From contig JAISJQ010000025.1 in NCBI GenBank assembly GCA_031261445.1, positions 14,635 through 78,634 of the forward strand: 64,000 nt of DNA, written 5' to 3'. The DNA comes from Oscillospiraceae bacterium (GTDB lineage: Bacteria > Bacillota > Clostridia > Oscillospirales > Acutalibacteraceae). Made by a program: the position numbers and the translations under genes. The notes under the pieces were generated by a model. The model did not search any database. It saw nothing but the letters and a program-made list of their open reading frames with translations, and was not told the DNA's origin. Positions 867-63,338 of this stretch are shown in pieces (the stretch's first letter is position 1; each line of letters starts with the position of its first letter).

Positions 867-1688
867 CTAAACCACTTGACTCACCGCAATAAACGACGGA
901 TCATACATGACCCGCGCGTTGGCTTGGTCGATGATGGCCGCATCCAGCAGGTTGCCCGTGCGCTTGTCGTTGACGCGGCGCACAACACGGTTGCGGCGAT
1001 AATATTGTCCGTCCACACAAACAAAGTGTGCGTCTTCCTCCACAATGTGCACAGAAAGATCAAGGACCGTTTGGGCGCGCAGTTCCCCACAAAGATGCGT
1101 GTCATTGGTGGAGACGAGCAGCTGAAACGTCTGTTCGCTGTTGTTTTGGACGCGATAATCCAGATAATTATACAAAATCGATGTCCCGCAGCCAAAGGGC
1201 ACTTGTCGCCCAAAATCGGGGAATAGATCCAGGTCGTTGTGGTGATGGCGTTCGATGATGTCCAACGGGCTGTGCAGCACCATCCAGTGAATCAAGTTGC
1301 TCAACTGGCACATGCCGCCGCCCACATCATGGCTTGGAGCGTGCTGCTTGATGGTCAAGCCCTCTTTGTATCCACGTTTTGCGCTGGTATTGCCCACGAG
1401 TCGCCAGAGCGAAAACGTTTCGCCGGGTTGGATGAGAATACCGTTCACAAGGGGCGCGGCGAGCGCGAGATTGTGCGCTTTGTTTTCTTGTAATTGCATA
1501 TCTACGTTGCCCAACTTGCGGCGAATGAGTGATTTGTGCGCATAGATCAGGGTCGGCAAGGGCGCATCTGTTTCGTGCGCAAATTTTGTTCTCGCCCAAA
1601 AATCCTGTGCGTGGCGCACGAGACGTTCTTTTTGTGTGCTCAAATAATAAGTAGCGGGTGAAATTTCGCAAAACAGTTTTCTGGGCAT
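867..1688 (-). CDS. VanW family protein
   Basis: ORF 867..1733. GYKEGL and HDVGGGMCQLSN motifs are typical of the VanW/YoaR domain. Start set to ATG 1688 (MPRKLF) behind AAGGGA. Confidence 0.75.
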   Translation of the reverse strand: MPRKLFCEISPATYYLSTQKERLVRHAQDFWARTKFAHETDAPLPTLIYAHKSLIRRKLGNVDMQLQENKAHNLALAAPLVNGILIQPGETFSLWRLVGNTSAKRGYKEGLTIKQHAPSHDVGGGMCQLSNLIHWMVLHSPLDIIERHHHNDLDLFPDFGRQVPFGCGTSILYNYLDYRVQNNSEQTFQLLVSTNDTHLCGELRAQTVLDLSVHIVEEDAHFVCVDGQYYRRNRVVRRVNDKRTGNLLDAAIIDQANARVMYDPSFIAVSQVV

Positions 1689-1758
1689 GTGTGTTCCCTT
1701 GTTGGCTATATCTTCGCGCAGAGTATAGCACACACCCTAGGAAAATGCAAGCGCGTTG

Positions 1759-1979
1759 CAATGAACAATGAACAAAGAACAATGAACAATTGTTTGCCTG
1801 CTGCTTCAGCCAGTATTAAGATAACAACCTGTTTTGAGGCGTGAGGGATGAGGATACAGGCGTGAGGTCTGTATCCCCGCAACGGGCGGATGATATCCGC
1901 CCCTACCAGCCTCATTTCTGTATCCTCATCCCTCCACAACAATTGTTCATTGTTCATTGTCAATTGTTCATTGTCAATG
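1759..1979. repeat. about 220-bp nested inverted repeat: AATGAAC array / GAGG array / REP-like hairpin / CCTC array / GTTCATT array
   Basis: Arrays at 1760-1794, 1836-1870, 1884-1906, 1907-1935 and 1937-1979. The arms are reverse complements family by family. Confidence 0.9.
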
Positions 1980-1984: not shown

Positions 1985-2013
1985 TTGACAAATCTGCCAC
2001 AATGTGCTATACT
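1985..2013 (+). promoter_or_regulatory. sigma-70-type promoter of rimP operon
   Basis: TTGACA (1985-1990), 17-nt spacer, TATACT (2008-2013) with TGn extension. Confidence 0.7.
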
Positions 2014-2089
2014 GTGCGCATCAAGTGTGTAGATTGAGGGAAAGAGTGGGTGTTAGCCCGCTCTTTCTTTTCAAAAAGGAGCTGCGCCC

Positions 2090-6744: not shown

Positions 6745-6801
6745 CAATGAACAATTGACAATTGACAATGAACAATTGGTGGGGCGGCAGATTGCCGCCC
6801 C
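6745..6801. repeat. AATGAAC heptad array plus REP-like hairpin GGGGCGGCA-gat-TGCCGCCCC
   Basis: Read directly. Lies after the infB stop. Confidence 0.85.
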
Positions 6802-10280: not shown

Positions 10281-10424
10281 GTAGGGGCGCGCGCCCCTGC
10301 GCGCCCGCTGTCAGAAACATGAAGCCTGTAGGGGCGGCAATCTGCCGCCCGCTGAGTTTGTAGGAAGCAGCGGGCAGATTTTCGGGCGCAATTCTGCCCT
10401 CTGTCTTCTGATTTCTTCCCTCTG
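10281..10424. repeat. two REP-like hairpins, conserved linker, and a CTCTG-type heptad array
   Basis: GTAGGGGCGCGC..GCGCGCCCGC (10281-10308), GTAGGGGCGGCAatcTGCCGCCCGC (10328-10352), GCGCAATTCTGCCCTCTG.. (10385-10424). Confidence 0.85.
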
Positions 10425-10510: not shown

Positions 10511-12001
10511 ATGTCGAAAAAAACAGACACCCAAAGCATAAAAGAGCCCAAAAGCCGGAAAACACCCAAAGATTGGGCACGCGCTGTGCGCACATTTTTC
10601 CTGTCCATCCCCGGGAGAATCACGGCGTTCATCCAACCCAACGGCAAGTTCAGCAAGAAGAACATTGCCATTCTGGCCACGAGCATCTTGCTGGTGATTG
10701 CGCTGATTGTGGGCGCGGTCTTCGGCGGCATTGCGCTCTGGGGCAGCACGGACGATGACCCGTCCAACACCACGATTGAAGAGGAAGAGAACGACGACTT
10801 CCCCAGCGACAAGTACGGTCTGAGCGATGCGGGGAGCTTGAACGAGCTGCTCCGCGCGTGGGCGCAGACGGGCACACCTGTGCAACAGAACTACGTGATC
10901 AACGTGCTGCTCATCGGCGTGGACAGCCGCAAAGAGGGTGGCGAAGGGCGCAGTGACGCGATGATTTTGGTGTCTGTCAACAAACAGACGAAGAAAATCA
11001 CGCTGGCATCCTTCCCCCGCGATAGCTACACCTATATGCAGATTAAGGGCGAGGATCGCTACGACAAAGTCAACCACTCTTATGTTTGGGGCGGCGCGGA
11101 CGCGCTTGTGCCCACCCTTGAGAACGCCTACAAAATCAAGATCGATCACTGGGCGGCGGTGGATTTCGTCACGTTCAGCCGCGTGGTGGATATCCTCGGC
11201 GGCGTGAACATCACCGTCACCGAGGCGGAATCCAAAGAAGTCAACAACCACCCCAAAACCTATGGCAAAGTCACCCTGCCCTTTGGTGAAAACATCAAGC
11301 TCAACGGGCGGCAAGCCCTCACCTTCAGCCGCATTCGGCATTTGGGCAGCGACGTGGCACGCACCGAGCGTCAACGCAAAATGATCACCCAGCTCATCGG
11401 CAAGGCCAAGGGCGCGTCGCTGGATCAACTGACCAAAATCGCGGGGGAACTGCTCAAAAATGTGAAGACGGACATTGGTTTGGTGGACTTCACGGCGCTG
11501 GGCACGCAGGCACTGAGCGGCGGCTGGGCGGGCTTTGACATCGCTTCGTTGGAAGTGCCCGACAGCAGTTTGCGCCTGCCCACCCTCTTGCCGGGCACGT
11601 ATGCCAACCCCAATCGCAACATTTCTGTGTACGTCATTGACTACCCGCGCGGCGCGTATGACCTGCAGATGCGGCTGTATGGGCAATCCAACATCGTCAT
11701 TGACGAGAACACGCCCAATGCGCTGGCACTGCTCAGTCCCCCGCCGAAACCGACCAATCCGCCCACGGTGTATGTCCCGCGCACAGTTGCGCCCACTGTG
11801 CCCAACGTCAGCGCGGTCAAACCCAGTGCACCAGCACCCGCCAGCTCTGCCGTCAAGCCGTCCGCGACCACACCCGCGCAATCCACCACGCCGAGCGTCC
11901 CCGTCACAAAGCCGAGCACCGCGCCGACGATTCCGCCCGTCACCACAACGCCCACGAAACCCGCGACAGTGCCCAGCACCGCACCCGCTCCGTTGGGCTG
12001 A
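10511..12001 (+). CDS. LytR-CpsA-Psr (LCP) family cell-envelope transferase with Pro/Thr/Ser-rich C-terminus
   Basis: ATG 10511 behind GGAGG. TM helix. VLLIGVDSR..GRSDAMILVSVN..SFPRDSY LCP core. Confidence 0.85.
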   Translation: MSKKTDTQSIKEPKSRKTPKDWARAVRTFFLSIPGRITAFIQPNGKFSKKNIAILATSILLVIALIVGAVFGGIALWGSTDDDPSNTTIEEEENDDFPSDKYGLSDAGSLNELLRAWAQTGTPVQQNYVINVLLIGVDSRKEGGEGRSDAMILVSVNKQTKKITLASFPRDSYTYMQIKGEDRYDKVNHSYVWGGADALVPTLENAYKIKIDHWAAVDFVTFSRVVDILGGVNITVTEAESKEVNNHPKTYGKVTLPFGENIKLNGRQALTFSRIRHLGSDVARTERQRKMITQLIGKAKGASLDQLTKIAGELLKNVKTDIGLVDFTALGTQALSGGWAGFDIASLEVPDSSLRLPTLLPGTYANPNRNISVYVIDYPRGAYDLQMRLYGQSNIVIDENTPNALALLSPPPKPTNPPTVYVPRTVAPTVPNVSAVKPSAPAPASSAVKPSATTPAQSTTPSVPVTKPSTAPTIPPVTTTPTKPATVPSTAPAPLG

Positions 12002-12090: not shown

Positions 12091-12273
12091 ATGGATATGC
12101 AAGACGCGGCATGGCAACAGTTTATGCAAAGCGGCCAAGTGACGGATTATCTCCAGTATTGCAACGTGCGCAACATGGTCGTGGGCACGGCGCAGCACGT
12201 CAGGAAAGGCAAGCAGAATGCATCTCGACTGCCCCGGACTCGTTCTGGCGGCCAAGGATACGGCGGAAAATGA
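12091..12273 (+). CDS. YqzL-family small protein (tentative)
   Basis: AGGAG RBS. AWQQFMQSGQVTDYLQY resembles the YqzL motif, and the position upstream of recO matches Bacillus. The 3' end overlaps recO by 55 nt, so its extent is uncertain. Confidence 0.45.
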   Translation: MDMQDAAWQQFMQSGQVTDYLQYCNVRNMVVGTAQHVRKGKQNASRLPRTRSGGQGYGGK

Positions 12274-12970
12274 CCGCTTGCTGACCATCCTCACGGCAGA
12301 CGTGGGGGTGGTCACTGCGTTTGCCAACGGTGCGCGGCGGCGCAATTCCCGCCTACAGGCCGCCGTGCAGGCTCTGTGCTATGGCGATTTTTCCCTCTAC
12401 CGCCGCCGGGATACTTACACCGTGGACGATGCACGCGCCCAAAACGTCTTCTTTGGTCTGCGTGCCGACCTGACCCGCCTCGCGCTAGCGCAATATTTCT
12501 GCGCACTGGCGACGGTTTTAGCACCCGCCGAACACGGCGGCGCGGACTTTTTGCAGCTACTCCTGCTCGCGCTGACCTGTCTGGATAAACAGCGGCACGC
12601 GCCGGTACTCATTAAACCCGCCGTGGAACTGCGCCTACTGTCCCTTGCGGGGTGGACACCCGATCTCTCCCGTTGCCGCGTCTGCGGCGCGGACACACTA
12701 GCGGGCGATTTTGTCACGCTGGATCTGCACGAAGGCAATTTCATCTGTGCGGACGAACCGCCGCAGGCGGGCGAGCGCATCGGGTTGGGCGTGCTTTCCG
12801 CCATGCGCCACATCTGCGACGCGCCCTTGCGGCGACTATTCGCCTTCACCCTGCCCGCGCCGAGCCTGGCGCGTCTGGGCGAAGTGTGCGAGGCACTGGT
12901 GCGCGTGCACATCCCAGAGCGTACCCGCGCGGTGTGGGACACGCTGGCGTTTTATCAGGAGCTGTGCTGA
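12218..12970 (+). CDS. recO: DNA repair protein RecO
   Basis: 250 aa. N-terminal OB region (GLVLAAKDTAENDRLLTILT..GARRRNSR) and Cys4 zinc motif (CRVCG..C). Confidence 0.85.
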   Translation: MHLDCPGLVLAAKDTAENDRLLTILTADVGVVTAFANGARRRNSRLQAAVQALCYGDFSLYRRRDTYTVDDARAQNVFFGLRADLTRLALAQYFCALATVLAPAEHGGADFLQLLLLALTCLDKQRHAPVLIKPAVELRLLSLAGWTPDLSRCRVCGADTLAGDFVTLDLHEGNFICADEPPQAGERIGLGVLSAMRHICDAPLRRLFAFTLPAPSLARLGEVCEALVRVHIPERTRAVWDTLAFYQELC

Positions 12971-12982
12971 GCGGCAAAACTC

Positions 12983-13011
12983 TTGCGCAAATGCGCAAAA
13001 CATGTTATAAT
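12983..13011 (+). promoter_or_regulatory. promoter of dnaA
   Basis: TTGCGC (12983-12988), 17-nt spacer, TATAAT (13006-13011). Confidence 0.6.
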
Positions 13012-13045
13012 ATTCGGCGGAACAAAGTTGCGGGAGGGGACGAGC

Positions 13046-14347
13046 ATGGACAGCTTTATGGGCGACATTTGGCCCATGGTGCAAAAGGCGCTCAAGGAGA
13101 GTGTGTCGGAGATCACCTATAGCGTGTGGCTTTCCGACTTGCATGTGCAGGAATTCGACGAAGACCATGCGGTTCTCTACACCAGCGCGTTCAAAAAACA
13201 GCTGATTGAGAAGAAATTTGCCGAGCAACTCGATGCCGCGTTCGCGCGCGTGTTGGGCTTTTCCATTCGTGTGAGCATCATCGCCGACCCCGCCGAAGCC
13301 ACACCCAGCAAACCCGCGAAAACCGCCGCGCCACCCATGGTTTTGCAGACATTCGACAGCTTCGTCGTCGGCGATTCCAATAAGTTCGCCCACGCGGCGG
13401 CCGTCGCCGTGGCGGGGCGTCCGGGAGAAGTGTACAATCCGCTGTTCATTTGGGGGCACTCTGGCCTTGGCAAAACGCACTTGATGCAGGCAATTTTACA
13501 CGAAATCCGCATCAAACGGCCGGACGTGCGCATGATTTCAACCACTGGCGAAGCCTTCGCCAACGAGCTCATCAGTCACATTTACGCGAAAAATATGGAA
13601 GCGTTTCACAATAAATTTCGCGGCGTAGATGTCTTGCTGGTCGATGACGTGCAGTTCATTGGCGGCAAGGAGAGCACGCAAGAGGAATTTTTTCACACAT
13701 TCAACGAAATCACCAACAGCGGCGGACAAATCGCGCTGGTCAGTGACCGCCCACCCAAGGAGATCGCCACGCTCGATGAGCGACTGCGCACGCGCTTTGA
13801 AATGGGGCTCATTGCCGACATCGCGCCGCCCGATCTAGAGACCCGCACGGCCATTGTGCAACGCAAGGCGCGGGAAATCGGTGTGGACTTTCCGCCCGAA
13901 ATCTGCACCTTCATTGCCGAAAAACTTCACGCCAATGTGCGGCAGTTGGAGGGCGCGGCGCGGAAACTCCACGCGCACCTTGTCCTCAGCGGGCGGGAAC
14001 TGACACGGCAGACGGCAGAGCTGGCCATCCGCGATGTGCTGGAGGAATCCGCCCCGCCGGGCGTGACGGTGGAGCGCATTATTGAAGAAATTGCACGCGC
14101 CTATGGCGGTTCGCCTGAGATGATTCGTGGAAAAAAACGCGATGCCCGCACGGTGCTCATGCGTCAGGCGGCCATTTACTGTGCGCGACAGGCCACACCG
14201 CTTTCCATGCAGGAAATCGGCAAAGAGTTTGGCGGGCGCGACCACTCAACGGTCTTGCACTCGCTGAAAACCTGCGATTACGAAATGAAAAACAACGCCC
14301 AACTGCGAGCGGTGGTCAACGATGTGCTGAAGAATATTCGGGAGTGA
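13046..14347 (+). CDS. dnaA: chromosomal replication initiator protein DnaA
   Basis: ATG 13046 behind GGGAGGGG. GHSGLGKTHL Walker A, LLVDDVQF Walker B, and domain IV GGRDHSTVLH signature. Confidence 0.93.
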   Translation: MDSFMGDIWPMVQKALKESVSEITYSVWLSDLHVQEFDEDHAVLYTSAFKKQLIEKKFAEQLDAAFARVLGFSIRVSIIADPAEATPSKPAKTAAPPMVLQTFDSFVVGDSNKFAHAAAVAVAGRPGEVYNPLFIWGHSGLGKTHLMQAILHEIRIKRPDVRMISTTGEAFANELISHIYAKNMEAFHNKFRGVDVLLVDDVQFIGGKESTQEEFFHTFNEITNSGGQIALVSDRPPKEIATLDERLRTRFEMGLIADIAPPDLETRTAIVQRKAREIGVDFPPEICTFIAEKLHANVRQLEGAARKLHAHLVLSGRELTRQTAELAIRDVLEESAPPGVTVERIIEEIARAYGGSPEMIRGKKRDARTVLMRQAAIYCARQATPLSMQEIGKEFGGRDHSTVLHSLKTCDYEMKNNAQLRAVVNDVLKNIRE

Positions 14348-14353
14348 CGCGCC

Positions 14354-17029
14354 TCAACGCAAGGGCGCGAGCAACTCTTGCGCCATGTCGGGATTTTCCA
14401 CGCGCATGAACATGCCGTCCTGTCCGCCGCCGTACCACACGATGATGCCATCCACGATGCAAAAGCGGCCACGGGCACTTTCTTTTTGTAGCACCTGCAC
14501 CCCAGCGCCGCGCAACGTCTGTAGACAGGCCGTCTGCGCCTCGCCGCGCACGGGGCGCGTCACCACCACGGGGCGTGCGCCCTGCACTTTTGCCGTGGTC
14601 AGCCACGGCAAAAGCTGTGTGATTTGCGCCTCGCTGAGCGTTGGCGCGACGACGACAATGCCCTTTTTGGCGCCCTGTATGTCCCGCGCAAAAACGGGGG
14701 CGTAGGTGTCGGCGTCAAAAAACGTGCCGATTTTTTCCACGTTTTGCGCTTCCCGCGTGTGATATTGCATGGCGGCATAACCCGCCGCACGCTTGGCGTA
14801 CATGCGCTCGAGCATCACAACCTGGGTGTCCACATAGTCGTAAATCATCACATCGCTTTTGCTCGGATGTGTGCGGTGCAGGCGACCGGCGTACTGCTGG
14901 AGCGTGCCTTTCCATGCAATAGGCGTGGCCAAAAACAGCGTATCCAGGCGCGGCTCATCGAAGCCCTCGCCCACAAATTGCCCAGTGGCCACCAAACAAA
15001 ACGGCTCGCCGTCTGGAATCGCTTGTAGTCGCTCCACGGCCTCGCGCTTTTCTTTGGCACTCGCCTTGCCCGTCAGTTCAATCACATTGTCACAAAAAGC
15101 GGAAATCATCGTGGAAAGCGCGTGCACGTGCGCCACAGATTTGCTCAAGACAAGCGGCGTGCGCCCCTCCGCTAGCGCGGCGCAGACATCCGACACAATC
15201 AACTTATTGCGCACCGGGTCATCGGCCAGCGCGTTATACAGCTGCGCAATTTTCAGGTCGTTCGGGTTCATGTGCAGCGGCACTTGAAACGCCGTAAAGC
15301 GCGGCACAAGAAAACGCGCAAGCCCCGTGATTTCCGCCTGCTTGGCCGCATTGACACGGTGACGAATGGGACCACATTGCATGAAGATGATGGGCGTCAG
15401 ACCGTCCGAACGCGCGGGTGTGGCCGATAGGCCATAGACGTGGCGTGCCGTCACAGCACCCAGAATACGCTCGAAACTCACAGCGGAAACATGGTGGCAT
15501 TCGTCCACAATCACCATGCCATAATCGCGCACAAGCCCCTTCACCTCGTCGCCCTCGGCCAGCGACTGCATCACCGCAATATCCACCTTGCCGTAGAGCG
15601 CATTTTTGCCGCCGCCCAGCTGTCCAATGTGGCTCGGGCGTTTGCGCGGCACGATGGGCAAGGGCTCGTCGAAAACCAAAAAGCTCTCCAACGCCTTTTT
15701 CCACTGGTTCAGCAATGCCGTGGTGTGCACCAAAATCAGCGTGTTGACCTGCCGTTGGGCGATGAGATACGCGCCCACCACCGTTTTGCCAAAGGCCGTG
15801 GTGGCACTGAGCACGCCATTTTCGTGCCGGAGCATGGCCGCCGCCGCCGGCGTTTGTTCCGGGCGCAGCTCGCCACTGAACGTCACATTTACATGCCGCC
15901 CATCCGTGCGTTTATCCAACAGACTGTAGGGCGCGTGCGCCTCGTCCAGCAGGGCGCACAAATCCTGTGCACAGCCCCGCGGGAGGAGCAGGTAGTCCGC
16001 TGTCTCGTCTGCGCAGCAGACGATGCGTGGCAGTGTGCCCACCGTGGGCAAGCGCATGGCCACCGCCTTCGCCCACGCCGGATTGCGGAACGCCGCCAAC
16101 CGCTTGATGCGCCCCAGCGCTCGCTCGCTCACGCCCCCTTTGGGGATGTAGAGCCGATTGGCGTGCACGATCTCCAGCGCGGCGGGGAAGTCGGCGGGCG
16201 TCAGGGGGGGCGGCGGGGGGGCGGCTTCCCACGGGGTTTTGTCCTCTGGGTCGGGACTGAGAACGCCCAGTTCTGATCCGCCGATTTTGCGAATCACCTC
16301 CTGCACATCGTCTGGGCTGAGTCGCTCAACGCGTGACAAATAGTCCCACTGATCGGGGTATGCTTCGAGATTGTCATCCACAAACAAGCTATTGCCCGCT
16401 TTGCGCATTTTGCCTTGGAGTGGCAACGCGATCAGGTTGCCCAAACCGCCGCGGGGCACGCTGTCCTGGTTGGGGAAGAGGCGGTCGTAGCTCTCGAACG
16501 GGATCTCGTGCCGCTTGCCCATGGCAAACGTGAGCAGGGCTGAGCCAAAACGCCGCGCTTGCACCGCCGGGATTTTCTCGTCAAAAAAGAACCACACATG
16601 CGCCCCGTTGCCCGAACGCGAACGCTCCACCGCTGGGTGCAGTTCCAGCTCCTCGCAGGCCAAACGAAAGGCGGCCACGTCTTTTTTCCACGCGGATTTG
16701 TCGAAATCCAGCGCAAGAAAGTGGCAACAGTCGTCCAGCGTTAAGGGGTAGATGCCGACAACGTCTGCGCCGATGGGGCTTTTACCCGCTAGGTGGTCGT
16801 AGAGCACTTTTTCGCTCAGACGCATGAAGCTGCGGTGGGGGCACTCGGCACAACGGTGTGCTTTTTTGTCGCACAGCCCCCGCACCCATTCGTTGCGGCA
16901 GACCGGCGCGTAGCCGCTTTTGCCCGTGCGTTGGTTCTCCCAGCGTTTGGCGTACACGTCTTCGCGCCCACGAAACAAGCCCATAAAGAGGGCGACTTTC
17001 TCGTCCGTACTGCTTTTGTTGGTGACCAT
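14354..17029 (-). CDS. fusion protein: N-terminal archaeo-eukaryotic primase (PrimPol)-like domain, SF2 DExH helicase, C-terminal degenerate PLD-like domain
   Basis: AGGAGG RBS. AEP-type motifs LALDFD (DxD), SGNGAHVWFFF (sGxGxH) and YDRLFPNQD. Helicase motifs TAFGKT, VDECHH, LSATP and QYAGRLHR. The C-terminal ~130 aa resemble a PLD-fold repeat without HKD. Confidence 0.8.
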   Translation of the reverse strand: MVTNKSSTDEKVALFMGLFRGREDVYAKRWENQRTGKSGYAPVCRNEWVRGLCDKKAHRCAECPHRSFMRLSEKVLYDHLAGKSPIGADVVGIYPLTLDDCCHFLALDFDKSAWKKDVAAFRLACEELELHPAVERSRSGNGAHVWFFFDEKIPAVQARRFGSALLTFAMGKRHEIPFESYDRLFPNQDSVPRGGLGNLIALPLQGKMRKAGNSLFVDDNLEAYPDQWDYLSRVERLSPDDVQEVIRKIGGSELGVLSPDPEDKTPWEAAPPPPPLTPADFPAALEIVHANRLYIPKGGVSERALGRIKRLAAFRNPAWAKAVAMRLPTVGTLPRIVCCADETADYLLLPRGCAQDLCALLDEAHAPYSLLDKRTDGRHVNVTFSGELRPEQTPAAAAMLRHENGVLSATTAFGKTVVGAYLIAQRQVNTLILVHTTALLNQWKKALESFLVFDEPLPIVPRKRPSHIGQLGGGKNALYGKVDIAVMQSLAEGDEVKGLVRDYGMVIVDECHHVSAVSFERILGAVTARHVYGLSATPARSDGLTPIIFMQCGPIRHRVNAAKQAEITGLARFLVPRFTAFQVPLHMNPNDLKIAQLYNALADDPVRNKLIVSDVCAALAEGRTPLVLSKSVAHVHALSTMISAFCDNVIELTGKASAKEKREAVERLQAIPDGEPFCLVATGQFVGEGFDEPRLDTLFLATPIAWKGTLQQYAGRLHRTHPSKSDVMIYDYVDTQVVMLERMYAKRAAGYAAMQYHTREAQNVEKIGTFFDADTYAPVFARDIQGAKKGIVVVAPTLSEAQITQLLPWLTTAKVQGARPVVVTRPVRGEAQTACLQTLRGAGVQVLQKESARGRFCIVDGIIVWYGGGQDGMFMRVENPDMAQELLAPLR

Positions 17030-20934: not shown

Positions 20935-20976
20935 AGTATAACACAGCTGCGCTGTATTTTATTTCCAAATTAGAAA
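20935..20976 (-). promoter_or_regulatory. 42-nt shared promoter-proximal motif, copy upstream of the CDF exporter gene
   Basis: Minus strand reads TTTCTAATTTGGAAATAAAATACAGCGCAGCTGTGTTATACT. Confidence 0.6.
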
Positions 20977-21022
20977 GTTCGAACAATTGTTTTTCTGCTG
21001 GGAACGGCGCAGTTAACACAAC

Positions 21023-21071
21023 GGGCGACCGAGGACGGTCGCCCCTACGGGCAATTGTTCATTGTTCATTG
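21023..21071. repeat. REP-like hairpin (..CTAC) plus GTTCATT heptads overlapping the exporter gene stop
   Basis: GGGCGACCgaggacGGTCGCCCCTAC, then caattgttcattgttcattg. Confidence 0.85.
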
Positions 21072-21622
21072 GTTTCCCCCCGCACTGGCCGTATAACGTG
21101 GTTGACCGCGACGCTCACGGCGATGCCCAGAGCCGTGTCTAGGATGCGATTGAGGGCGTAGAGGTACGGCAGTTCGCGCTCGTTCGCGCCCACCAGCAGG
21201 ATGATGAACGTCACCGCGCAGATGGCGCAAGCGTCGCGGCGGTCGAGCAGGAGCATCAGCCAGATGACCAGCATACAGCCCACCAGCAGGAACAAAATGT
21301 TCAGCCGCCCGCCCCAGACGTGCGCACTGATCCACATGAAGCCCAGCCCCACCGCGCCGCCCACCGCCGTGCCCAGCAGTCGCCCGCCGCCGCTGTGCAG
21401 GGAGTGCGCGACGGTCTGTTGCATACAGATCACCGCCGCCACGCAGGCGAACAGGGGCTCTTGCATGGTGAGGAATGCCCCCACGGACGCGACAAAGCCC
21501 GTGCCGTGCGTCACCAGCGCTTGCCCCAGCGCCGCCAGCCCGAGGAACAGCAAGAGACACACCGTCACAGCCAAGGCGGTTTTGACCGTGCGCATACCGA
21601 GTTTGGGGATTTTTGTTTTCAT
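21059..21622 (-). CDS. aromatic acid exporter (ArAE/FUSC-like) family membrane protein
   Basis: MRTVKTALAVTVCLLLF N-terminus and 5-6 TM helices. The stop lies in a heptad array. Confidence 0.6.
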   Translation of the reverse strand: MKTKIPKLGMRTVKTALAVTVCLLLFLGLAALGQALVTHGTGFVASVGAFLTMQEPLFACVAAVICMQQTVAHSLHSGGGRLLGTAVGGAVGLGFMWISAHVWGGRLNILFLLVGCMLVIWLMLLLDRRDACAICAVTFIILLVGANERELPYLYALNRILDTALGIAVSVAVNHVIRPVRGETNEQ

Positions 21623-21672: not shown

Positions 21673-21783
21673 CAATTAACAAAGAACAATTGTCTGTAGG
21701 GGCGACCGTCCCTACATATAAACAACGCAGATTGTCCATGCCTCACCCGCCTCACGCCTGTATCCTCAGTCCTCATGCCTCAC
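21673..21783. repeat. AAC-type heptads, GTAG hairpin, and a CCTCA-type heptad array overlapping the rarA stop
   Basis: 21673-21692, 21696-21715 and 21737-21783, read directly. Confidence 0.85.
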
Positions 21784-23097: not shown

Positions 23098-23244
23098 GGA
23101 GGGATGAGGATTCAGGATACAGGCGTGAGGCCTGTAGGGGCGGCAACCTGCCGCTGTTAAGACGGCAGATGTCAGAGGACAGATCTTTAGGCGCAATTCT
23201 GTCCTCTTCAAGGTCAGCGGGCGCGCAGGGGCGCGCGCCCCTAC
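23098..23244. repeat. GAGG heptad array plus composite element bounded by inverted REP-like hairpins
   Basis: 23098-23133 heptads, GTAG hairpin 23134-23154, CAGAGGACAGA..TCTGTCCTCT 23167-23208, hairpin ending CCCCTAC 23217-23244. Confidence 0.85.
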
Positions 23245-24764: not shown

Positions 24765-25658
24765 ATGTGGTCAAGCCTCATAATCTCAACAGCCTTAAAA
24801 ACACTTGCTGAAATATTTGCTGCGTATGGAATTGGTAAAGGACTTGACGCTCTCGCAGAAAAAATGAAAAGAAATACGTGGGAATGGCAATTAATTAAAG
24901 CTATGGAAGAAACATGTAAAAGCTACACTTGGGACTATGACTCTAAACGGATAAGTATAGTTGCGCAAAATCAACAAGCTCCGCAGAGCTCAACGAACTT
25001 CCTGCGAGCTTTACTCTCTGATATGATAGGACATGACGTTACCGAAAATGAATTATCGCAATGGCTTCGCACTTTTAGTGGCGTGGTTGCAAACATGCGT
25101 TTTGTTGCGCTCCGAGATTACCTTCAGTTGAATTTCACAACCACTTATCCACTGATTTCTGCATTTTCTGCTGAAAAACCGATTGATTCAGCTGTTTTCC
25201 CATCGAATGCTCCACAAAATAATCTGAACCTTTTCTTTTCTGTGCAAACGTTCTTAGCATATCATATTAACGAAAATTACTATGGCGGCGTACATTTCGT
25301 TTGGTGCGCAGATAGTTTTGATGATAAAGAACTCCCACCTTTTGCAAATCCCAAAAGCATTTACCACTCTTTGATTAATACCAAGGACAAATACAGCCGG
25401 AGTATTAATGAAAAAATGAAAGGCATTCTGGCGGGTGCCGCCCAGATGTATGCCAAAGGAAAAATTAATAAAAAAGAGCTGAAAGAGATAATAGATATTG
25501 TAAATCGTGCACCCGTGCACCATTTTCGTCCCGTTTTATATCTGATTCACAAGTTACTCATTCAACCCGAGAGAATTGACACCGTTGTCTCTTATCGTAA
25601 CAACATTCATATTATCGCTGACCTAAGTTCCAATGAGTGCGAGATGTTAGAACTATGA
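24765..25658 (+). CDS. hypothetical protein in a low-GC island
   Basis: 297-aa ORF with GAAGGTGA RBS. The AT-rich composition is sharply different from the flanks. I cannot assign a domain. Confidence 0.6.
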   Translation: MWSSLIISTALKTLAEIFAAYGIGKGLDALAEKMKRNTWEWQLIKAMEETCKSYTWDYDSKRISIVAQNQQAPQSSTNFLRALLSDMIGHDVTENELSQWLRTFSGVVANMRFVALRDYLQLNFTTTYPLISAFSAEKPIDSAVFPSNAPQNNLNLFFSVQTFLAYHINENYYGGVHFVWCADSFDDKELPPFANPKSIYHSLINTKDKYSRSINEKMKGILAGAAQMYAKGKINKKELKEIIDIVNRAPVHHFRPVLYLIHKLLIQPERIDTVVSYRNNIHIIADLSSNECEMLEL

Positions 25659-26986: not shown

Positions 26987-27060
26987 AATGCAAAACTCCT
27001 TGTTCACAGATGGTGGTTAGTATACCAGATTTTCGCGAAAAATGCAATTGCCGGCTAGCG

Positions 27061-27153
27061 CAATGAACAATTAACAAAGAACAATGAACAATTATTCGCA
27101 ACGGGCGGCAACTTGCCGCCCCACAACAATTGTTCATTGTTCATTGTTCATTA
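27061..27153. repeat. nested inverted repeat: AATGAAC array / hairpin GGGCGGCAactTGCCGCCCC / GTTCATT array
   Basis: 27061-27094, 27103-27122 and 27124-27153. Confidence 0.9.
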
Positions 27154-27164
27154 CATTCACGCCG

Positions 27165-28651: not shown

Positions 28652-28665
28652 ATTCGCACTCCTTA

Positions 28666-28717
28666 CTAGATGCTAAGCAAATAATTGTACATTGTAAATT
28701 GTTCATTGTTCATTGAA
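28666..28717. repeat. short CTAGATG unit plus GTTCATT-type heptad array abutting the mgtA stop
   Basis: ctagatgcta ... ttgtacattgtaaattgttcattgttcattgaa. Confidence 0.8.
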
Positions 28718-31462: not shown

Positions 31463-31588
31463 GTAGGGGCGCACGCTGATTATCACAAACGCAAGCGGGC
31501 GGCAGATTGCCGCCTCTACAGGCCTCATGCCTGTATCCTCAATCCTCATGCCTCTATAGCAGCGGGCGCACGGGGCGTGTGCCCCTAC
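31463..31588. repeat. half GTAG hairpin, REP-like hairpin plus CCTCA heptads (60-nt unit), second hairpin ending CCCCTAC
   Basis: 31463-31476, 31495-31554 and 31562-31588. Confidence 0.85.
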
Positions 31589-31647: not shown

Positions 31648-33348
31648 TTAGGTGACCGTCACCTTGCAGGTCGCCTTTTTGCCGTTATAGAGCTTGACGG
31701 TGATGATGGCCGTGCCCTTTTTCTTGGCGGTGACAACGCCTTTCGCGCTCACGGTGGCCACCTTTTCGTTATTGCTCTCCCAAGTGACCGCGCTGGCGGT
31801 GTTCGCTGGCAGGGTACTCTTTAAGGTCAGCGTTTTCTTCACGGCCAGTTTCGCCGTGGTCTTGCTGATGGTCACTTTGCTGGGGGCGGCTTTCACCGTC
31901 ACGGTGAACGTGGCGGGCTTTTTGTTGTATGTCGTCACCGTGATGGTGGTTTTGCCCACGCCTTTGGCGGTGATGCGCCCCGCAGAATCCACGGTGGCGA
32001 TTTTGGAATTCGCGCTTTTGTACGTGCGCGTGGTTTGCGCGGCGGCGGGTGTGAGCGTGACGGCGGTGGCGTATTTCTCCCCCACGCCCAGCGTGACGGA
32101 TTTCACCTTATAGGCAATCTTTGTGGGCGCGGCCTTGACGGTGACGGTGAATTTCGCGCTCAGCTCGTTATAGGTCGTGACGGTGATGGTGGCCTTGCCC
32201 ACGCCTTTGGCGGTGATTCTGCCCGCAGAATCCACGGTCGCGATTTTTTCGTTGTCGCTTTTATACGTGCGCTTGTCCTTCGCCGCCGCAGGGGTGAGGG
32301 TCACGGCAGAGCTGTATTTCTCCCCCACGCCCAGCGTGATAGACGCTGGCTTGAAAGCGATTTTTGTGGGCACGGCTTTCACCGTCACGGTGAGATTGGC
32401 GACCAATTTGTTGTAGCTTTGCACTTTGATGGTCACCGTGCCCACGCCCACGGCGGTGACAACGCCGTCCGCGTCCACGGTGGCGATCTTCTTGTTGGCG
32501 CTCGTATATGTGCGCTTGTCCCGGGCGTTCGTGGGCGTAATCGTCACGGCTGAGCGATACTTTTCGCCCACACCCAGCGTCACGGCAGTGCTCTTATAGG
32601 CAAGCGCGGTCGGCGCAGGCAGGACGGTGACGGTCAGCTCGTCGGTTAAGCTGTTATAGCTTTGCACTTTGATGGTGGTCGTGCCCACGCCAACGGCGGT
32701 GACAACGCCGCTGGCATCCACGGTGGCGACTTTTTTGTTTAAGCTGGTATACGTGCGGCTGTCCTTGGCCGCCTTCGGCGCGAGCGTGACGACGGTGGTA
32801 GCTTCTTCGCCCACGCCCAGCGTGAGGGGCGCGGTTTTGTAGGCCAGATCCGTCAAGGCCTCCAGCACCGTGACGGTCTGCGTGGCGGTCTTGTTGTTGT
32901 AGCTGGTGACGGTGATGGTGGCGGTGCCCGCGGCCACGGCGGTCACTTTGCCGCTGGCGTCCACGGTGGCGATGCTCTCATCGGAAGAGATGTACGTGCG
33001 CACCGCCTTGGCATCCGCAGGCGTTAGGGTGAGCGCGGGGGTGTTGATTTCGCCCACGCCCAGCGTGCTCTCGGCGGCTTTGAAGGCGATATCCTTGAGC
33101 GCAGGCTTCACGGTGATGACCAGCTTCGCGCTCTGATTGTTATAGGTGGTGGTGACGGTGATGGTGGCCGTGCCGGCGGCCTTCGCGCTGATTTTCCCGG
33201 CCGCGTCCACGGTCGCCACGGCCGTGTTGGAGGACGCATAACTGCGCCCACTGGCCGCACCGCCCGGCGTGATGACCGTGCTTGTCGCCAACGTTTGCCC
33301 CACGGCCAGCAGGGTCTCGCTTGCGCTGAGGGTGATGCCCGTGGGCTT
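31648..33348 (-). repeat. in-frame tandem repeats of ~240 nt encoding 7 Big_2 domains
   Basis: Adjacent units are highly similar at protein level (e.g. ..KIATVDSAGRITAKGVGKATITVTTYN.. twice). Confidence 0.8.
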
Positions 33349-35355: not shown

Positions 35356-35430
35356 TGAGGCAACCCAGGCGTGAGGGGGTACGCTGGGCGATTTGTGCAT
35401 ACCCTCATTCCTGTATCCTCATCCCTCATT
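35356..35430. repeat. inverted GAGG / CCTCA heptad arrays between convergent genes
   Basis: tgaggcaacccaggcgtgaggggg ... accctcattcctgtatcctcatccctcatt. The right arm contains the response-regulator stop. Confidence 0.8.
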
Positions 35431-36112: not shown

Positions 36113-36125
36113 GGGGTGCTCCTTA

Positions 36126-36162
36126 CTAGAAATTAGATATTAGAGACTAGATGCTAGATTTT
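36126..36162. repeat. CTAGATN heptad array (5 units in perfect 7-nt phase) in the response-regulator 5' UTR
   Basis: TAG at 36127, 36134, 36141, 36148 and 36155. Confidence 0.9.
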
Positions 36163-37614: not shown

Positions 37615-37694
37615 GTAGGGGACGCCGCCCTCGGCGTCCCGCTGATCTCTATGGTTTTTCTGCGCCACGGGGCGATGTGGACATCGCCCCCTAC
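37615..37694. repeat. pair of REP-like hairpins in opposite orientation
   Basis: GTAGGGGACGCCgccctcGGCGTCCCGC (37615-37642) and GGGGCGATGTggACATCGCCCCCTAC (37669-37694). Confidence 0.85.
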
Positions 37695-40375: not shown

Positions 40376-40540
40376 GAACTAGGTGTTACGTGTGAGGTAG
40401 ACGCTGATGCCTCTACCTGTAGGGGCGAGCTATGCTCGCCCGCTGTGAAGACGCCAGCTTTTCGGGTGCGCAATTCTGTCCTCTGCCTTCTGATTCCTGT
40501 CTTCTGCTAGCTCAGCGGGCGAGCGCAGAAACGCCCCTAC
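40358..40540. repeat. TAGA-type heptads (contain the asnB stop) plus composite element bounded by inverted REP-like hairpins
   Basis: 40358-40388 heptads, GTAG hairpin 40419-40443, linker plus CTCTG heptads 40439-40507, degenerate hairpin ending CCCCTAC 40515-40540. Confidence 0.85.
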
Positions 40541-42535: not shown

Positions 42536-42569
42536 GATGTTACTCTTTTCTTACTAACAGATGGCAGCG

Positions 42570-42800
42570 GTAGGGGCGGATATCATCCGCCCGCCGTTTG
42601 ATTTGTAGGGGCATTGAGGTATGAGGCGTGAGGGTTCAGGAATGAGGGTTGTAGGGGCGCACGCCCCGTGCGCCCGCTGTGAAGACGACAGATTTTCGGG
42701 TGCGCAATTCTGCCCTCTGCGTGAATCAGTGGGCGCACAGGGGCGTGCGCCCCTACGGGGATACCTGCCCGCCACACGGGCGGCGGATTGCCACCCCTAC
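42570..42800. repeat. dense cluster: GTAG hairpin, GAGG heptads, composite element with inverted hairpins, degenerate hairpin
   Basis: 42570-42594, 42613-42650, 42651-42756 and 42776-42800. Confidence 0.85.
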
Positions 42801-47580: not shown

Positions 47581-47785
47581 TAATAGTGAATAGGTTTTGG
47601 GATGAGGTTCGTAGGGGCGGATATCATCCGCCCGCCGTACAGAGGGCAGAGCGTTTCGCGCCTTGTATCCTCACGCCTCTGTAGGGGCAACCCTTGTGGT
47701 TGCCCTGCGGGTATGGTTGCCCCGATAATGTATTTTCCGTAAAGGGCGACCATACCCGCAGGGCACAGGCAAGGGTTGCCCCTAC
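47581..47785. repeat. AGTGAAT heptads, GTAG hairpin, and a 105-bp element with 28-bp inverted termini enclosing an 11-bp-stem hairpin
   Basis: 47581-47596, 47611-47635 and 47681-47785. Confidence 0.85.
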
Positions 47786-47804
47786 ATCCCCTGCGTTTCG
47801 GCAG

Positions 47805-47846
47805 GTGAACCAAAACACAACAGGGCACAGCTTGCGCTGTGCCCTA
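47805..47846 (-). terminator. intrinsic terminator after the GxGYxYP gene
   Basis: Stem AGGGCACAGC/GCTGTGCCCT (47822-47846), followed on the minus strand by GTTGTGTTTTGG. Confidence 0.65.
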
Positions 47847-47859
47847 CCCCCACCATCCA

Positions 47860-49995: not shown

Positions 49996-50007
49996 GTCTG
50001 TTCCTTT

Positions 50008-50068
50008 CTAGATGCTAGATTTTAGATGTTAGGTGCTAGATATCGAAGCTCTAGTGTCTAACATCTAA
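50008..50068. repeat. CTAGATN heptad array plus short inverted copy containing the aminotransferase stop
   Basis: tctagat/gctagat/tttagat/gttaggt/gctagat ... tctaacatctaa. Confidence 0.85.
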
Positions 50069-51327
50069 TTCTCAAGAGCAGCGATCTTCACGGCCAAGCA
50101 CAGCAGTTCTGCCGCCGTTTCCAGTTCTGTGATGGGCGGCAGGGTGGGCGCGATGCGGATGTTGCGGTCGAGCGGATCGATCCCCAGCGGCCAGGTTGCG
50201 CCTGACGGCGTGAGCACCACGCCTGCCTCGGCGCACAGCTCCCCCACGCGTTTGGCGCAGCCCTGCGGCACGTCCAGACTGATGAAGTATCCACCGCGCG
50301 GGCGCGTCCACTGGGCAATACCCAAAGCGCCCAAATTGCGCTCCAACGCGGCGAGCACGGCATCGAACTTGGGCTCAAGCAGGGCGCGGTGCTTTTCCAT
50401 GTGGGCATACACACCCGCCGCAGAGCCAAAATAGCGCACATGACGCAGTTGGTTGAGTTTGTCGTGGCCGATGGTCTGCACCGAAAGCCGCGTTTTGATG
50501 GCCGCAAGGTTGCTCTCGCTGGCCACGAGCACGCTCACACCCGCACCGGGGAAGGTGATTTTGCTGGTGCTGGTGACCTCCAAGAAGTGATCCTCGTGCC
50601 CATATTTCCGCGCTTCGGCGAAAATCTCCAGCAGCTCTTCGCCGCCCGCGCGGACATCGTGCACGCAGTAGGCATTGTCCCAAATGACGCGGAAATCCGT
50701 GGCGGCGGGAGAGAGCGCGGCCAGCGCACGCACGGTGTCGTCGCTGAAGGTGATGCCCGTGGGGTTGGCGTATTTGGGCACGCAGAACATGCCCTTCACG
50801 GTGGGGTCGGCGGCCAGCTCACCCAGCACGCGCATGTCCGGGCCCTCTTCCGTCATAGGCACGGGCAACATCTGGATGCCAAAGTGCTCCAGAATGGCAA
50901 AGTGGCGGTCATAGCCCGGCACGGGGCACAGGAACTTGACGGCGCGTTGCTGACTCCACGGCTTGGCGCTGCCGCCCACGCCGTGCGTCCAGTACTGGGC
51001 GATGAGGTCATACATGATGTTCAGCGAAGAATTGCCAAAGACGAGGACGTTTTTGGCATCTACGCCCAAAAGTTCGGCAAACAGTGTCCGCGCTTCAGGC
51101 AGACCGTCAGGACCGCCGTAGTTGCGGGTATCCAGCCCGCCGCTGGTCACGTCCCGCGCGATGAGGGAGGCATCCAGCAACCCCATCGAGAGTTCCAGCT
51201 GTTCGCGGCAGGGCTTGCCCCGGCTCATGTCCAGCTTCAGCCCCCGCGCCTGAAAATTGGCGTAGTCGCCCTGCAACTGCGTCAGCAGTGCGCCACGCAT
51301 GTCTGCGCTCATGTCTTTATACTGCAT
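50065..51327 (-). CDS. PLP-dependent aminotransferase (class I/II fold)
   Basis: 420 aa with LDMSRGKP N-terminal motif and STSKITFPGAGV (Lys-PLP region). Confidence 0.75.
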   Translation of the reverse strand: MQYKDMSADMRGALLTQLQGDYANFQARGLKLDMSRGKPCREQLELSMGLLDASLIARDVTSGGLDTRNYGGPDGLPEARTLFAELLGVDAKNVLVFGNSSLNIMYDLIAQYWTHGVGGSAKPWSQQRAVKFLCPVPGYDRHFAILEHFGIQMLPVPMTEEGPDMRVLGELAADPTVKGMFCVPKYANPTGITFSDDTVRALAALSPAATDFRVIWDNAYCVHDVRAGGEELLEIFAEARKYGHEDHFLEVTSTSKITFPGAGVSVLVASESNLAAIKTRLSVQTIGHDKLNQLRHVRYFGSAAGVYAHMEKHRALLEPKFDAVLAALERNLGALGIAQWTRPRGGYFISLDVPQGCAKRVGELCAEAGVVLTPSGATWPLGIDPLDRNIRIAPTLPPITELETAAELLCLAVKIAALEN

Positions 51328-51348
51328 AGGGTATTGCTCCTTGTTTTT

Positions 51349-51422
51349 CAGAGGAGAGAAGGCAGATGTTTGGATCTGCGAGTCTGTCTTCTGTCTTCTG
51401 CCCTCTGACTTCTGAATTCTGA
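51349..51422. repeat. inverted CAGARRN / NYYTCTG heptad arrays
   Basis: cagaggagagaaggcagatg ... tctgcga/gtctgtc/ttctgtc/ttctgcc/ctctgac/ttctgaa/ttctga. Confidence 0.85.
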
Positions 51423-51426
51423 TGAA

Positions 51427-53322: not shown

Positions 53323-53344
53323 CAAACAATTGTTCATTGTTCAA
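53323..53344. repeat. GTTCATT heptads containing the GH gene stop
   Basis: caaacaattgttcattgttcaa. Encodes ..VEQ plus stop on the minus strand. Confidence 0.8.
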
Positions 53345-55823: not shown

Positions 55824-55899
55824 GAAGGAACTCCTCGTGCTTTTTGTTCTGCCGATATTATAGCAGATGAAGGGGAGAAAAACAAGCTAGAGGCGCATT

Positions 55900-55956
55900 G
55901 CAATGAACAATTTACAATGAACAAAGAACAATTGTCCATTGTTCTTTGTTCATTGC
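55900..55956. repeat. near-perfect palindrome made of AATGAAC heptads and their complement
   Basis: gcaatgaacaatttacaatgaacaaagaacaattg t ccattgttctttgttcattgc. Confidence 0.9.
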
Positions 55957-55968
55957 GCGAAGCGCACA

Positions 55969-55997
55969 TTGCGTTTTGCGCACAAAAATGTTATAAT
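55969..55997 (+). promoter_or_regulatory. promoter of gltX
   Basis: TTGCGT, 17-nt spacer, TATAAT (55992-55997). Confidence 0.6.
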
Positions 55998-56110
55998 TTA
56001 GATGCTAGACGTTAGAGACTAGGTTTTGCATCTATACGTCTCTTCATCAAAGAAACAACAGCGTTTTGCGACAGAATCTAGCCTCTAGTCTCTAATATCT
56101 AACATCTAGA
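55998..56110. repeat. inverted TAGA-type heptad arrays forming the gltX leader
   Basis: TTAGAGACTAGG (56012-56023) pairs with CCTCTAGTCTCTAA (56081-56094). Both arms are 7-nt periodic. Confidence 0.8.
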
Positions 56111-56122
56111 ACAGGAGTTTTT

Positions 56123-60384: not shown

Positions 60385-60585
60385 TGCTAGATCCTAATTT
60401 AGGTAATAAGTAATAGTGAATAGTGAATAGGTCATTTCAATGAACAATTTACAATGAAAAATTGTTGCAGGAATCAGCGGGCGGCAGGTTGCCGCCCCTA
60501 CAGGCCTCATGCCTGTATCCTGAATCCTCATTCCTCAATAGCCCATACAAACAATTGTTCATTGTTCATTGTTCATTGTTAATTG
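60385..60585. repeat. five-module spacer: TAGA, AGTGAAT, AATGAAC arrays / REP-like hairpin / CCTCA and GTTCATT arrays
   Basis: 60385-60400, 60401-60433, 60436-60468, 60477-60501, 60502-60539 and 60548-60585. Confidence 0.9.
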
Positions 60586-63302: not shown

Positions 63303-63338
63303 TACTAGATGCCAGATTTTGAAATTAGACGTTTGTGG

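Follow-up and report, generated by a model that had tools for sequence, protein, structure and literature searches.

The DNA analysed here (hereafter the window) is a 64,000-nt stretch of contig JAISJQ010000025.1 from an uncultured Oscillospiraceae-like Firmicute with a G+C content of 59%, and the element under study is a three-tier palindrome at positions 1757-1979, located between two divergent transcription units. On the left lies a VanW-like gene (867-1688, minus strand; VanW match, E 1.8e-52), and on the right the rimP operon (plus strand), in which rimP (2090-2560) is followed by nusA, rnpM/ylxR and infB. The rimP promoter (1985-2013, plus strand) is composed of TTGACA at 1985-1990, a 17-nt spacer and TGTGCTATACT (TGTGC-TATACT), presenting 11 of 12 matches plus a TG; a previous reading of the letters alone (the original prediction) had placed the palindrome directly before the -35 box of this promoter, and this position was confirmed. 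The VanW-like gene is preceded by a promoter-like site (1722-1750, minus strand) with TTGCAT, 17 nt and again TGTGCTATACT (TGTGC-TATACT), which was recovered by a dedicated pattern scan and was absent from the standard promoter scan because its -35 box has only three of six matches. The -10 regions of both promoters mirror each other as a 17-nt inverted repeat (1716-1732 and 2003-2019, 94%). Since both promoters face outward and their -35 boxes lie beyond the palindrome, neither of them transcribes it. Further downstream and outside the palindrome, the rimP leader contains a hairpin with a T run behind it (AGAGTGGGT..ACCCGCTCTTTCTTTTC; 2040-2072, plus strand) that gave a terminator-like match and is likely a conserved attenuator of the rimP-nusA-infB operon.

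A repeat search reported three nested inverted repeats in the palindrome: an outer one of 36 nt (1759-1794 and 1938-1973, 92% complementary), a middle one of 25 nt (1843-1867 and 1910-1934, 88%) and an inner one of 8 nt (1884-1891 and 1895-1902, 100%). The description of three module families with reverse complementarity family by family thus holds, and the heptad arms, the hairpin, the CTAC and the CCTCA heptads were all found where they had been located. The outer left arm (1757-1794, plus strand), hereafter the A module, reads CAATGAA, CAATGAA, CAAAGAA, CAATGAA and CAATTG(TT) at 1759-1794. It is followed by an asymmetric segment of 41 nt (1795-1835), which all predicted folds show as a bulge or side branch and for which no second copy was found in the window (blastn-short, E <= 1). 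The middle left arm (1836-1876, plus strand), or C module, reads GAGGCGT, GAGGGAT, GAGGATA, CAGGCGT and GAGGTCT at 1836-1870. The hairpin GGGCGGAT-GAT-ATCCGCCC then occupies 1884-1902, with CTAC at 1903-1906, and is followed by the middle right arm of CCTCA-type heptads (1907-1935, plus strand), a C tail beside the GTAG tag described below. The inverted outer right arm (A module; 1938-1979, plus strand) starts with CAATTG and continues with TTCATTG-type heptads, ~5.5 units of which two are variant. The sequence AACAATTGTT is present at both inner junctions of the outer tier (1785-1794 and 1938-1947).

Folding was tested on 1755-1982 (228 nt) against dinucleotide shuffles. The plus strand folded as RNA at -112.5 kcal/mol, compared with -54.6 +/- 4.8 for the shuffles (z -12.0), the minus strand at -113.3 kcal/mol (z -11.4) and the DNA at -65.8 kcal/mol (z -11.7), and no shuffle was as stable as the native sequence in any of the three runs. 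The anticipated ability to fold on both strands was therefore sustained. The dyad is nevertheless interrupted and not a clean cruciform, because the unique 41-nt segment lies inside the palindrome, a point missed by the original prediction. Small open reading frames (ORFs) running across it (1689-1844, 1706-2002 on the minus strand, and 1841-2032) were set aside as spurious by-products of stop-free heptads.

Read on the minus strand, the centre of the palindrome (1880-1906) is a hairpin with an 8-bp stem and a 3-nt loop, GTAG-GGGCGGAT-ATC-ATCCGCCC-GTTG. By its stem, tag, copy number, subfamilies and location, it is a member of the GTAG-tagged superfamily of repetitive extragenic palindromes (REPs), which the original prediction had not recognized. 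Over 25 nt it coincides fully (100%) with 42569-42593, and its identity to 47602-47634 and 63338-63363 is 94-96%. When perfect hairpins rich in G+C were scanned for, ~20 intergenic relatives emerged, all fitting GTAG-GGGCGnnn-loop-nnnCGCCC-G(C/T)TG, and ~25-29 REP units, nearly all of them intergenic, were counted in the window. The hexamer GTAGGG was also used as the sole anchor, so that sites were not selected by their pairing: 27-29 of its 39 occurrences fell in non-coding DNA, which makes up ~9% of the window, a ~28-fold enrichment, and a perfect stem of 8-9 bp, varying in sequence by copy, directly followed 15 of the 27 intergenic sites. In an alignment of 21 copies, 93.4% of the stem cells were paired, against 70.4% in shuffles, and 31 cells carried double changes, against 10 in shuffles (0 of 500 as high); five of the eight stem pairs varied on both sides, and slid registers fell to 35-55% paired. 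The GTAG tag is kept on nearly all members, with a GTGG variant at 6777 and 27125. As for location, 26 of the ~29 units lie between unidirectional or convergent genes, the rimP copy being one of three in divergent spacers, and in 18 of 24 oriented units the GTAG end leads when the unit is read in the direction of the preceding gene. Inverted REP pairs were found at 37615/37665 and 42651/42727, and clusters of alternating orientation at 42570-42800 and 47611-47847. A perfect REP-like palindrome of 28 nt, GTAGGGGCACGTCATGACGTGCCCCTAC, was also noticed at 57909-57936, within the mutS ORF just 3' of the MutS_V domain.

The heptads that surround this REP recur across the window as well. Seventeen period-7 arrays were detected, against 0-6 for periods 5, 6 and 8-11, and of the 39 heptad modules, which fall into five families, 33 are located outside coding DNA. 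The A module consists of ~35 nt of CAATGAA-type heptads whose inner side always ends in CAATTG. Positions 1758-1791 were 97% identical over 34 nt to 27060-27093, the irregular unit CAAAGAA included, and further copies lie at 55893-55956 and 60436-60588 (arms 55893-55935 and, as reverse complement, 60548-60587). This module takes three forms. It occurs as an uninterrupted palindrome at 55901-55955 (locus 55893-55963), centred on GAACAATTGTCC with an 18-bp stem and a 5-nt loop, between divergent promoters (z -5.3). It also occurs as palindromes split by a REP: a two-tier copy at 27058-27154 (A arm, REP at 27099-27125 on the minus strand, A arm), another at 60436-60588 (A arm, REP at 60475-60501 on the minus strand, C tail, A arm) and a third at 20975-21074 (AACAATTGTT, unique DNA, REP at 21019-21048 on the minus strand, and an A arm over the stop codon of the upstream gene). 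Junctions resembling AACAATTGTT are kept in these three and in 1757-1979. Finally, single A arms occur at 6745, 7808, 21673, 28682, 53327 and 61918, and wherever such an arm adjoins a stop codon, its units always read CAATGAA in the direction of the gene upstream. At 21059-21061, 53334-53336 and 60579-60581, an A-arm heptad itself provides the stop codon of the preceding gene, as TGA in CAATGAA or TAA in a variant unit, a parallel to other bacteria in which stop codons are provided by REP termini.

Copies of the C module were found at 779-817 and 23099-23136 and, as reverse complements, at 21750-21782 and 31517-31554. At 779-817 and 23099-23136 the GAGG array continues directly into a GTAG REP, and the REPs at 31494-31555 and 60475-60540 have homologues of the CCTCA tail next to their GTAG end, with another copy at 35403-35427. 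The GAGG/CCTCA tier is a conserved, heptad-patterned tail found with REPs on their GTAG side and, at rimP, stands on both sides in inverted orientation. It follows from these copies that the modules are dispersed and not local inventions. The same plan with fewer tiers had been proposed for five other loci, and this was upheld at 27061, 55900, 60401 and 63371 (z from -3.9 to -8.7) and proved weak at 51349-51422: the folds of 27055-27158, 60401-60590 and 63366-63436 gave z -7.9, -8.7 and -3.9, respectively, and that of 51345-51425 gave z -1.8, with 12 of 200 shuffles equally good.

The arms of these palindromes can be exchanged between loci. The left arm at 1759 pairs with its own partner at -43.8 kcal/mol (33 of 38 positions) and with the right arm of locus 60438 (60548-60588) at -47.4 kcal/mol (36 of 38), and the left arms at 27061 and 55901 pair at -27.3 and -26.0 kcal/mol with their own partners versus -39.8 and -39.2 kcal/mol with the arm 1938-1979. 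Arm lengths are unequal at every locus. Cognate arms therefore pair no better than arms taken from other loci; they are interchangeable and not co-adapted. The original prediction had expected both arms to change together, and unequal lengths, single arms and foreign arms that pair as well contradict it in spirit. No T tract follows any tier of the palindrome, the REP tails being GCTG or GTTG, and the only terminator-like match in 1600-2150 was that of the rimP leader at 2048-2063, with none inside the palindrome; an intrinsic (rho-independent) terminator was ruled out on this ground. A search of the whole window on both strands with the Rfam 15 families returned no match at or above the gathering threshold. 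Given the missing T tract, Rfam match and co-adaptation, the element is neither a terminator nor a known RNA, and its arms are not kept matched.

The comparison with relatives addressed the conservation of the locus. The nearest RimP relatives are 57-63% identical, several of them from termite-gut metagenome-assembled genomes; no relative between 63% and 100% identity was found by protein search, and a scan of species-representative genomes gave values of 58-63% only. Five relatives with up to 10 kb of flanking sequence were compared (L220, L221/L222, L223 and L224/L225), and none of the five carries the palindrome upstream of rimP. The gene upstream of rimP differs in every lineage compared. 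The rimP promoter and leader hairpin are kept in four of the five (L002/L220, L003/L224 and L223), that is, in all but L221/L222. Since relatives without the palindrome keep the promoter and the leader, the palindrome is not part of the conserved control of rimP. The modules themselves, irregular units included, recur in other spacers of relatives whose RimP is 57-58% identical. L223 carries an A palindrome; its AACAATGAACAATTTACA agrees at 18 of 18 positions with three copies in the window, and over a stretch of 26 nt the A sequence shows 92% identity with window 1941-1966. L221/L222 carry CCTGTATCCTGAATCCT, identical (17 of 17) to window 60512 and 23107, and an array of CTAGATG-type heptads (the B family, described below) in L222 is 85% identical over 34 nt to window 50004-50037. 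Orthologous spacers of the rimP-nusA-ylxR-infB-rbfA operon harbor different modules, or none, in each lineage. Conserved sequence at unconserved locations is the pattern of mobile elements.

Evidence of change came from L221 and L222, which have identical RimP proteins and differ between nusA and ylxR by a 43-nt block of CCTGAAA/CCTGTAT heptads, present in two copies in L221 (11608-11728) and three in L222 (11608-11771), a strain-level expansion in a relative. For the window's own population, an exact look-up of the RimP and VanW-like proteins returned two short contigs of a single run, SRR14710919 (L001 and L125), both of which end inside A arms. Contig L001 showed one mismatch against the window in 3590 nt and was identical over the B arrays and over the part of the right A arm that it reached.

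GTAG-type REP hairpins are of the kind recognized by REP-associated tyrosine transposases (RAYTs) on single-stranded DNA, and a gene of this family was found in the clade. In L221, whose RimP is 58% identical, a protein matches NCBIfam NF047646, the REP-associated tyrosine transposase (E 2.8e-21; 76 bits versus a cut-off of 80), and also Pfam Y1_Tnp, with an HIH motif and a tyrosine in RGYWEH. Its ORF (L221 1793-2392) contains four tandem units and one inverted unit of GTAGGGGACGC-ACACCYGG-GCGTCCC. In each of its homologues (57-59% identity; host G+C 41-63%), a forward and an inverted copy of this REP occupy the same ORF positions (L226 2651-3226, L227 4001-4495, L228 2023-2517 and L229 2361-2855). 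The REP segments (GTAGGGGACGCACACCYGGGCGTCC) are nucleotide-invariant across these hosts, compared with a mean column identity of 68% in the alignment of the L221, L226, L227 and L229 genes. The closest relative of this internal REP in the window is that at 37615-37644 (GTAGGGGACGCCG-CCCT-CGGCGTCCC-GCTG). The three extra tandem units of L221 encode GDAHxGVP repeats. A link between a hairpin upstream of the L221 gene and the centre of the window's D family was dropped, as the likeness was by eye and was not supported by BLAST.

Module identity and copy number, covariation of the REP stem, lineage-specific presence, position beyond both promoters and interchangeability of the arms are all observed. 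We consider it reasonably probable, at about 60%, that 1757-1979 is a mosaic of three dispersed intergenic modules, resembling a bacterial interspersed mosaic element (BIME) and gained in this lineage, and no regulator built for rimP; mobile or structural filler is a likelier description than a dedicated switch. The resemblance to a BIME lies in a REP joined with conserved flanking motifs as a mosaic, but only one REP is present. As to its origin, the outer module would most likely have existed already as an intact palindrome, and REP-bearing DNA would have come to lie at its CAATTG dyad, an order suggested by the uninterrupted and split copies; small slippage changes in each arm would have followed. 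Mobilization by a RAYT is the presumed means, and the element would have been gained in a spacer tolerant to insertions. The rimP copy would have no role as RNA. Any effect that it has at the locus would act on DNA, and may come from a flank rich in A+T that lies 5-8 nt in front of each -35 box or from local hairpin extrusion driven by negative supercoiling between the divergent promoters. Module copies between genes of the same direction are probably transcribed and, by analogy with what has been proposed for REPs, may act as 3' hairpins.

Several points weigh against this mosaic reading. Neither a RAYT nor any other transposase gene was found in the 64-kb window by Pfam scans and tblastn, and the putative RAYT link rests on a relative whose REP stem, GGGACGC, differs from GGGCGG, the stem most common in the window. 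Neither the A nor the B modules bear a GTAG tag, and no feature that would account for their spread was identified. The conservation of irregular heptads across genera would also be expected from purifying selection on a binding function. The (TTCATTG)n arrays 5-15 nt before the -35 box of six promoters occupy the position of an UP element, which could point to a function, and the orientation rule of the single arms at stop codons is needless for pure junk. Moreover, the organism is on record from a single strain or population.

Some of these points lead to the main rival, which is compatible with a mobile origin and holds that the heptads are protein-binding arrays, read by the RNA polymerase alpha C-terminal domain in the manner of an UP element, by a nucleoid protein or by a regulator that reads 7 bp. 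Two promoter-upstream arrays would then face each other at rimP, with the REP as a passenger. This explanation, which we hold to be unlikely, would account for the (TTCATTG)n arrays that point at the -35 box and stop short of it at the promoter-like sites of the vanW-like gene, rimP, the 21622 gene, argG, the 55823 gene and gltX, for the 71% A+T of the arrays in a genome of 59% G+C, for the promoters on each side of both A palindromes in divergent spacers, for the retention of module sequences between genera, irregular units too, and for the constant CAATGAA sense of single arms by stop codons. However, the distance from array to -35 box varies (5, 8, 13, 13, 14 and 15 nt), the arrays are not A-tract-like, and the same arrays stand after stop codons or inside operons at places where no promoter is predicted (6745, 7808 and 28682); relatives retain the rimP promoter without an upstream array, and no candidate binding protein was identified. 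On a further and distinctly improbable reading, the heptads would serve transcription units as a conserved punctuation code in an uncultured, termite-gut Oscillospiraceae-like clade, read by dedicated nucleic-acid-binding proteins in the order of stop codon, CAATGAA units, REP, TTCATTG units, -35 box, CTAGATG/CATCTAA hairpins and Shine-Dalgarno sequence. The rimP palindrome would in that case be a double boundary insulating the divergent promoters, and the conservation of irregular heptads would reflect recognition and not transposition. Between these two in plausibility, and still rather unlikely, stands a DNA cruciform or supercoil sink, in which negative supercoils between the diverging units would extrude the palindrome and couple or buffer the promoters. 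The position between divergent promoters, shared with the uninterrupted A palindrome at 55901-55955, the stability of the single-strand DNA fold (-65.8 kcal/mol, z -11.7) and the good nucleation points offered by the CAATTG dyad, rich in A+T, and by the REP with its short loop (8-bp stem, 3-nt loop) are consistent with it. Against whole extrusion, as the original prediction had allowed for, the unique 41-nt segment and the unequal internal loops break the dyad: this segment, REP spacers of 16 versus 7 nt and arm mismatches of 8-12% would penalize branch migration past the inner hairpin, most module copies lie outside divergent spacers, and cognate arms are not the best-matched pairs.

The other half of the original prediction, a transcribed long tiered RNA stem-loop acting as stabilizer, RNase III target or attenuator, is highly improbable at rimP. 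The folds on both strands (-112.5 and -113.3 kcal/mol, z around -12) speak for it, as do the copies between same-direction genes at 27061, 60438, 20975 and 6745, which directly follow stop codons and are probably transcribed, and the argument that most REPs act as RNA (PMC3733652); the right arm also contains weak -35/-10-like matches, read on the minus strand. The rimP copy, however, stands upstream of both promoters, which face away from it, no T tract lies behind any tier, Rfam gave no match, and the element is absent from all five relatives, including those with the conserved rimP leader. Least probable of all is a hypermutable simple-sequence contingency locus, in which the flanking genes would be switched or tuned as units are gained or lost. 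Heptanucleotides are the commonest long simple sequence repeats (SSRs) of prokaryotes and are thought to be born by slippage (Mrazek 2007, as summarized in PMC4679880), and the 43-nt heptad block does differ in copy number between L221 and L222. Nevertheless, the arrays are short (3-6 units) and imperfect, their irregular units are conserved between copies and genera, which is the opposite of rapid slippage turnover, and they lie outside both the -35/-10 spacer and coding DNA; the independent assembly L001 likewise showed no difference in the B arrays or in as much of the right A arm as it covers.

Among known systems, the GTAG REPs surveyed by Di Nocera et al. (2013, PMC3733652) offer the closest comparison. 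In common with the window family, they are short G+C-rich stem-loops (20-40 bp, with stems of 6-13 bp) with an unpaired GTAG (or GTGG/GTRG) at one end and many extragenic copies, they form subfamilies with complementary stem changes, and most of them follow an ORF and are flanked by genes that run in the same direction or converge. Some copies lie within repair genes, as the mutS palindrome does in the window, and some families are nested in larger palindromes, namely GTAG-15 of A. variabilis, GTAG-23 of T. roseum and CGTC-1 of H. neapolitanus. That survey covers Proteobacteria, Cyanobacteria, Chloroflexi and the PVC superphylum, with Firmicutes not listed, whereas the host of the window is an Oscillospiraceae-like Firmicute whose enclosing palindromes are heptad arrays in two nested tiers. 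In addition, the outer palindrome of the window also occurs free of REPs, unlike in A. variabilis, for which no REP-free target palindromes were found (PMC3733652). The REPIN-RAYT system (Bertels and Rainey; Nunvar et al. 2010, PMC2817692) likewise involves hairpin-forming, non-autonomous intergenic repeats that persist in a lineage, and its counterpart here is a RAYT-family gene with cognate REPs in a relative. A REPIN consists of two inverted REPs, whereas the rimP element has a single REP with other modules as arms; furthermore, no RAYT gene lies in the window, and the REP pair of the relatives lies within the RAYT coding sequence.

Tandem repeats of 7 nt form a second group of comparisons, to which the cyanobacterial short tandemly repeated repetitive (STRR) arrays belong. 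The heptanucleotide long SSRs described by Mrazek (2007, as summarized in PMC4679880) are also tandem 7-nt units confined to non-coding DNA, with several families per genome and a patchy phylogeny. The window arrays differ from both SSRs and STRR in being short, imperfect and placed in inverted pairs around REPs. Because irregular units are conserved between copies, they behave as fixed modules of ~35 nt and not as freely slipping satellites. A further comparison concerns the B family and not the modules of the rimP palindrome: the TAACTGA repeats of Beggiatoaceae (MacGregor 2015, PMC4679880) are heptamers placed a few nucleotides upstream of start codons, as is the B family, but the heptamer is a different one, and the window B arrays pair with their complement as hairpins and coexist with a Shine-Dalgarno sequence.

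If the mosaic reading is true, GTAG-type REPs and the RAYT family would extend to Oscillospiraceae-like Firmicutes, a phylum without mention in the surveys cited (PMC3733652 and PMC2817692), and REPs within one or two tiers of heptad-module palindromes would be a new arrangement. The modules keep their sequence between hosts whose RimP proteins are 57-58% identical and yet move, which offers a compact natural case to separate transposition from selection in the maintenance of bacterial intergenic repeats. Conserved control at the rimP locus resides in the promoter and the leader hairpin and does not involve the palindrome. There is also a practical side, since heptad arrays break short-read assemblies (both contigs from the Logan collection, L001 and L125, end in arms) and create spurious ORFs such as 1706-2002 on the minus strand, and recognizing the heptad family would aid assembly and annotation of such metagenome-assembled genomes.

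Two other heptad families of the window deserve a description. The B family (CTAGATG and its complement CATCTAA) makes hairpins in 5' untranslated regions and operon spacers, at 2561-2682 and 55995-56112, at 49998-50072, 36125-36162 and 28665-28680 on the minus strand, and in L223 at 11719-11793. Its CATCTAA arm stops a few nucleotides upstream of the Shine-Dalgarno sequence, and between the window, in front of nusA, and L223, in front of ylxR, the last B units and this sequence (CTAACATCTAACATCTAA..GAAGGATGA) hardly differ. A fourth module, of TCTGnCn heptads and their complement, forms small hairpins round a TTTTCGGGYGCGCAAT-like centre, usually just after a REP tail (10360-10420, 40450-40500, 42680-42722, 51345-51425 and 63366-63436).

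It was also examined whether the A heptad is met elsewhere. At least 120 metagenome contigs, ranging from 26 to 66% G+C, contain the array (ATTGTTC)3, some of them as inverted pairs, and in a viral collection it gave 5 matches versus 20, 63 and 6 for composition-matched control heptamers; GTAG hairpins were rare in the contigs that carry it (9 in 679 kb). CAATGAA was therefore dropped as a cross-phylum motif, with few GTAG hairpins and control heptamers as common or commoner, and the sequence of the heptad unit is not in itself special, since composition-matched controls are equally or more common. A literature search with 12 of the 14 rotations, both strands counted, returned nothing bacterial, only eukaryotic SOX-site and primer matches. 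In one unrelated metagenome contig of 54% G+C (L034, 5990-6475), a small ORF lies between (CAATGAA)n upstream and TTCATTG-type units downstream, and the stop codon of the preceding gene falls within the first heptad.

Other features of the window are independent of the palindrome. A full-length dnaA-like ORF (12983-14347; DnaA_N, Bac_DnaA and Bac_DnaA_C) directly follows recO (region 12218-17029), and an AEP-TOTE primase and helicase protein is encoded after it on the opposite strand (14354-17029), an unusual neighborhood for dnaA; a replication origin near this gene was considered, and GC skew was uninformative. A stretch of lower G+C with an ORF was observed at 24765-25640, the 24-26 kb bin having 50% G+C versus ~60% elsewhere. 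Finally, tandem repeats of 243 bp (2.3-2.7 copies, 73-74% matches) at 31875-32972 lie in a gene for a Big_2 (bacterial Ig-like) surface protein and are coding domain repeats, unrelated to the heptads.

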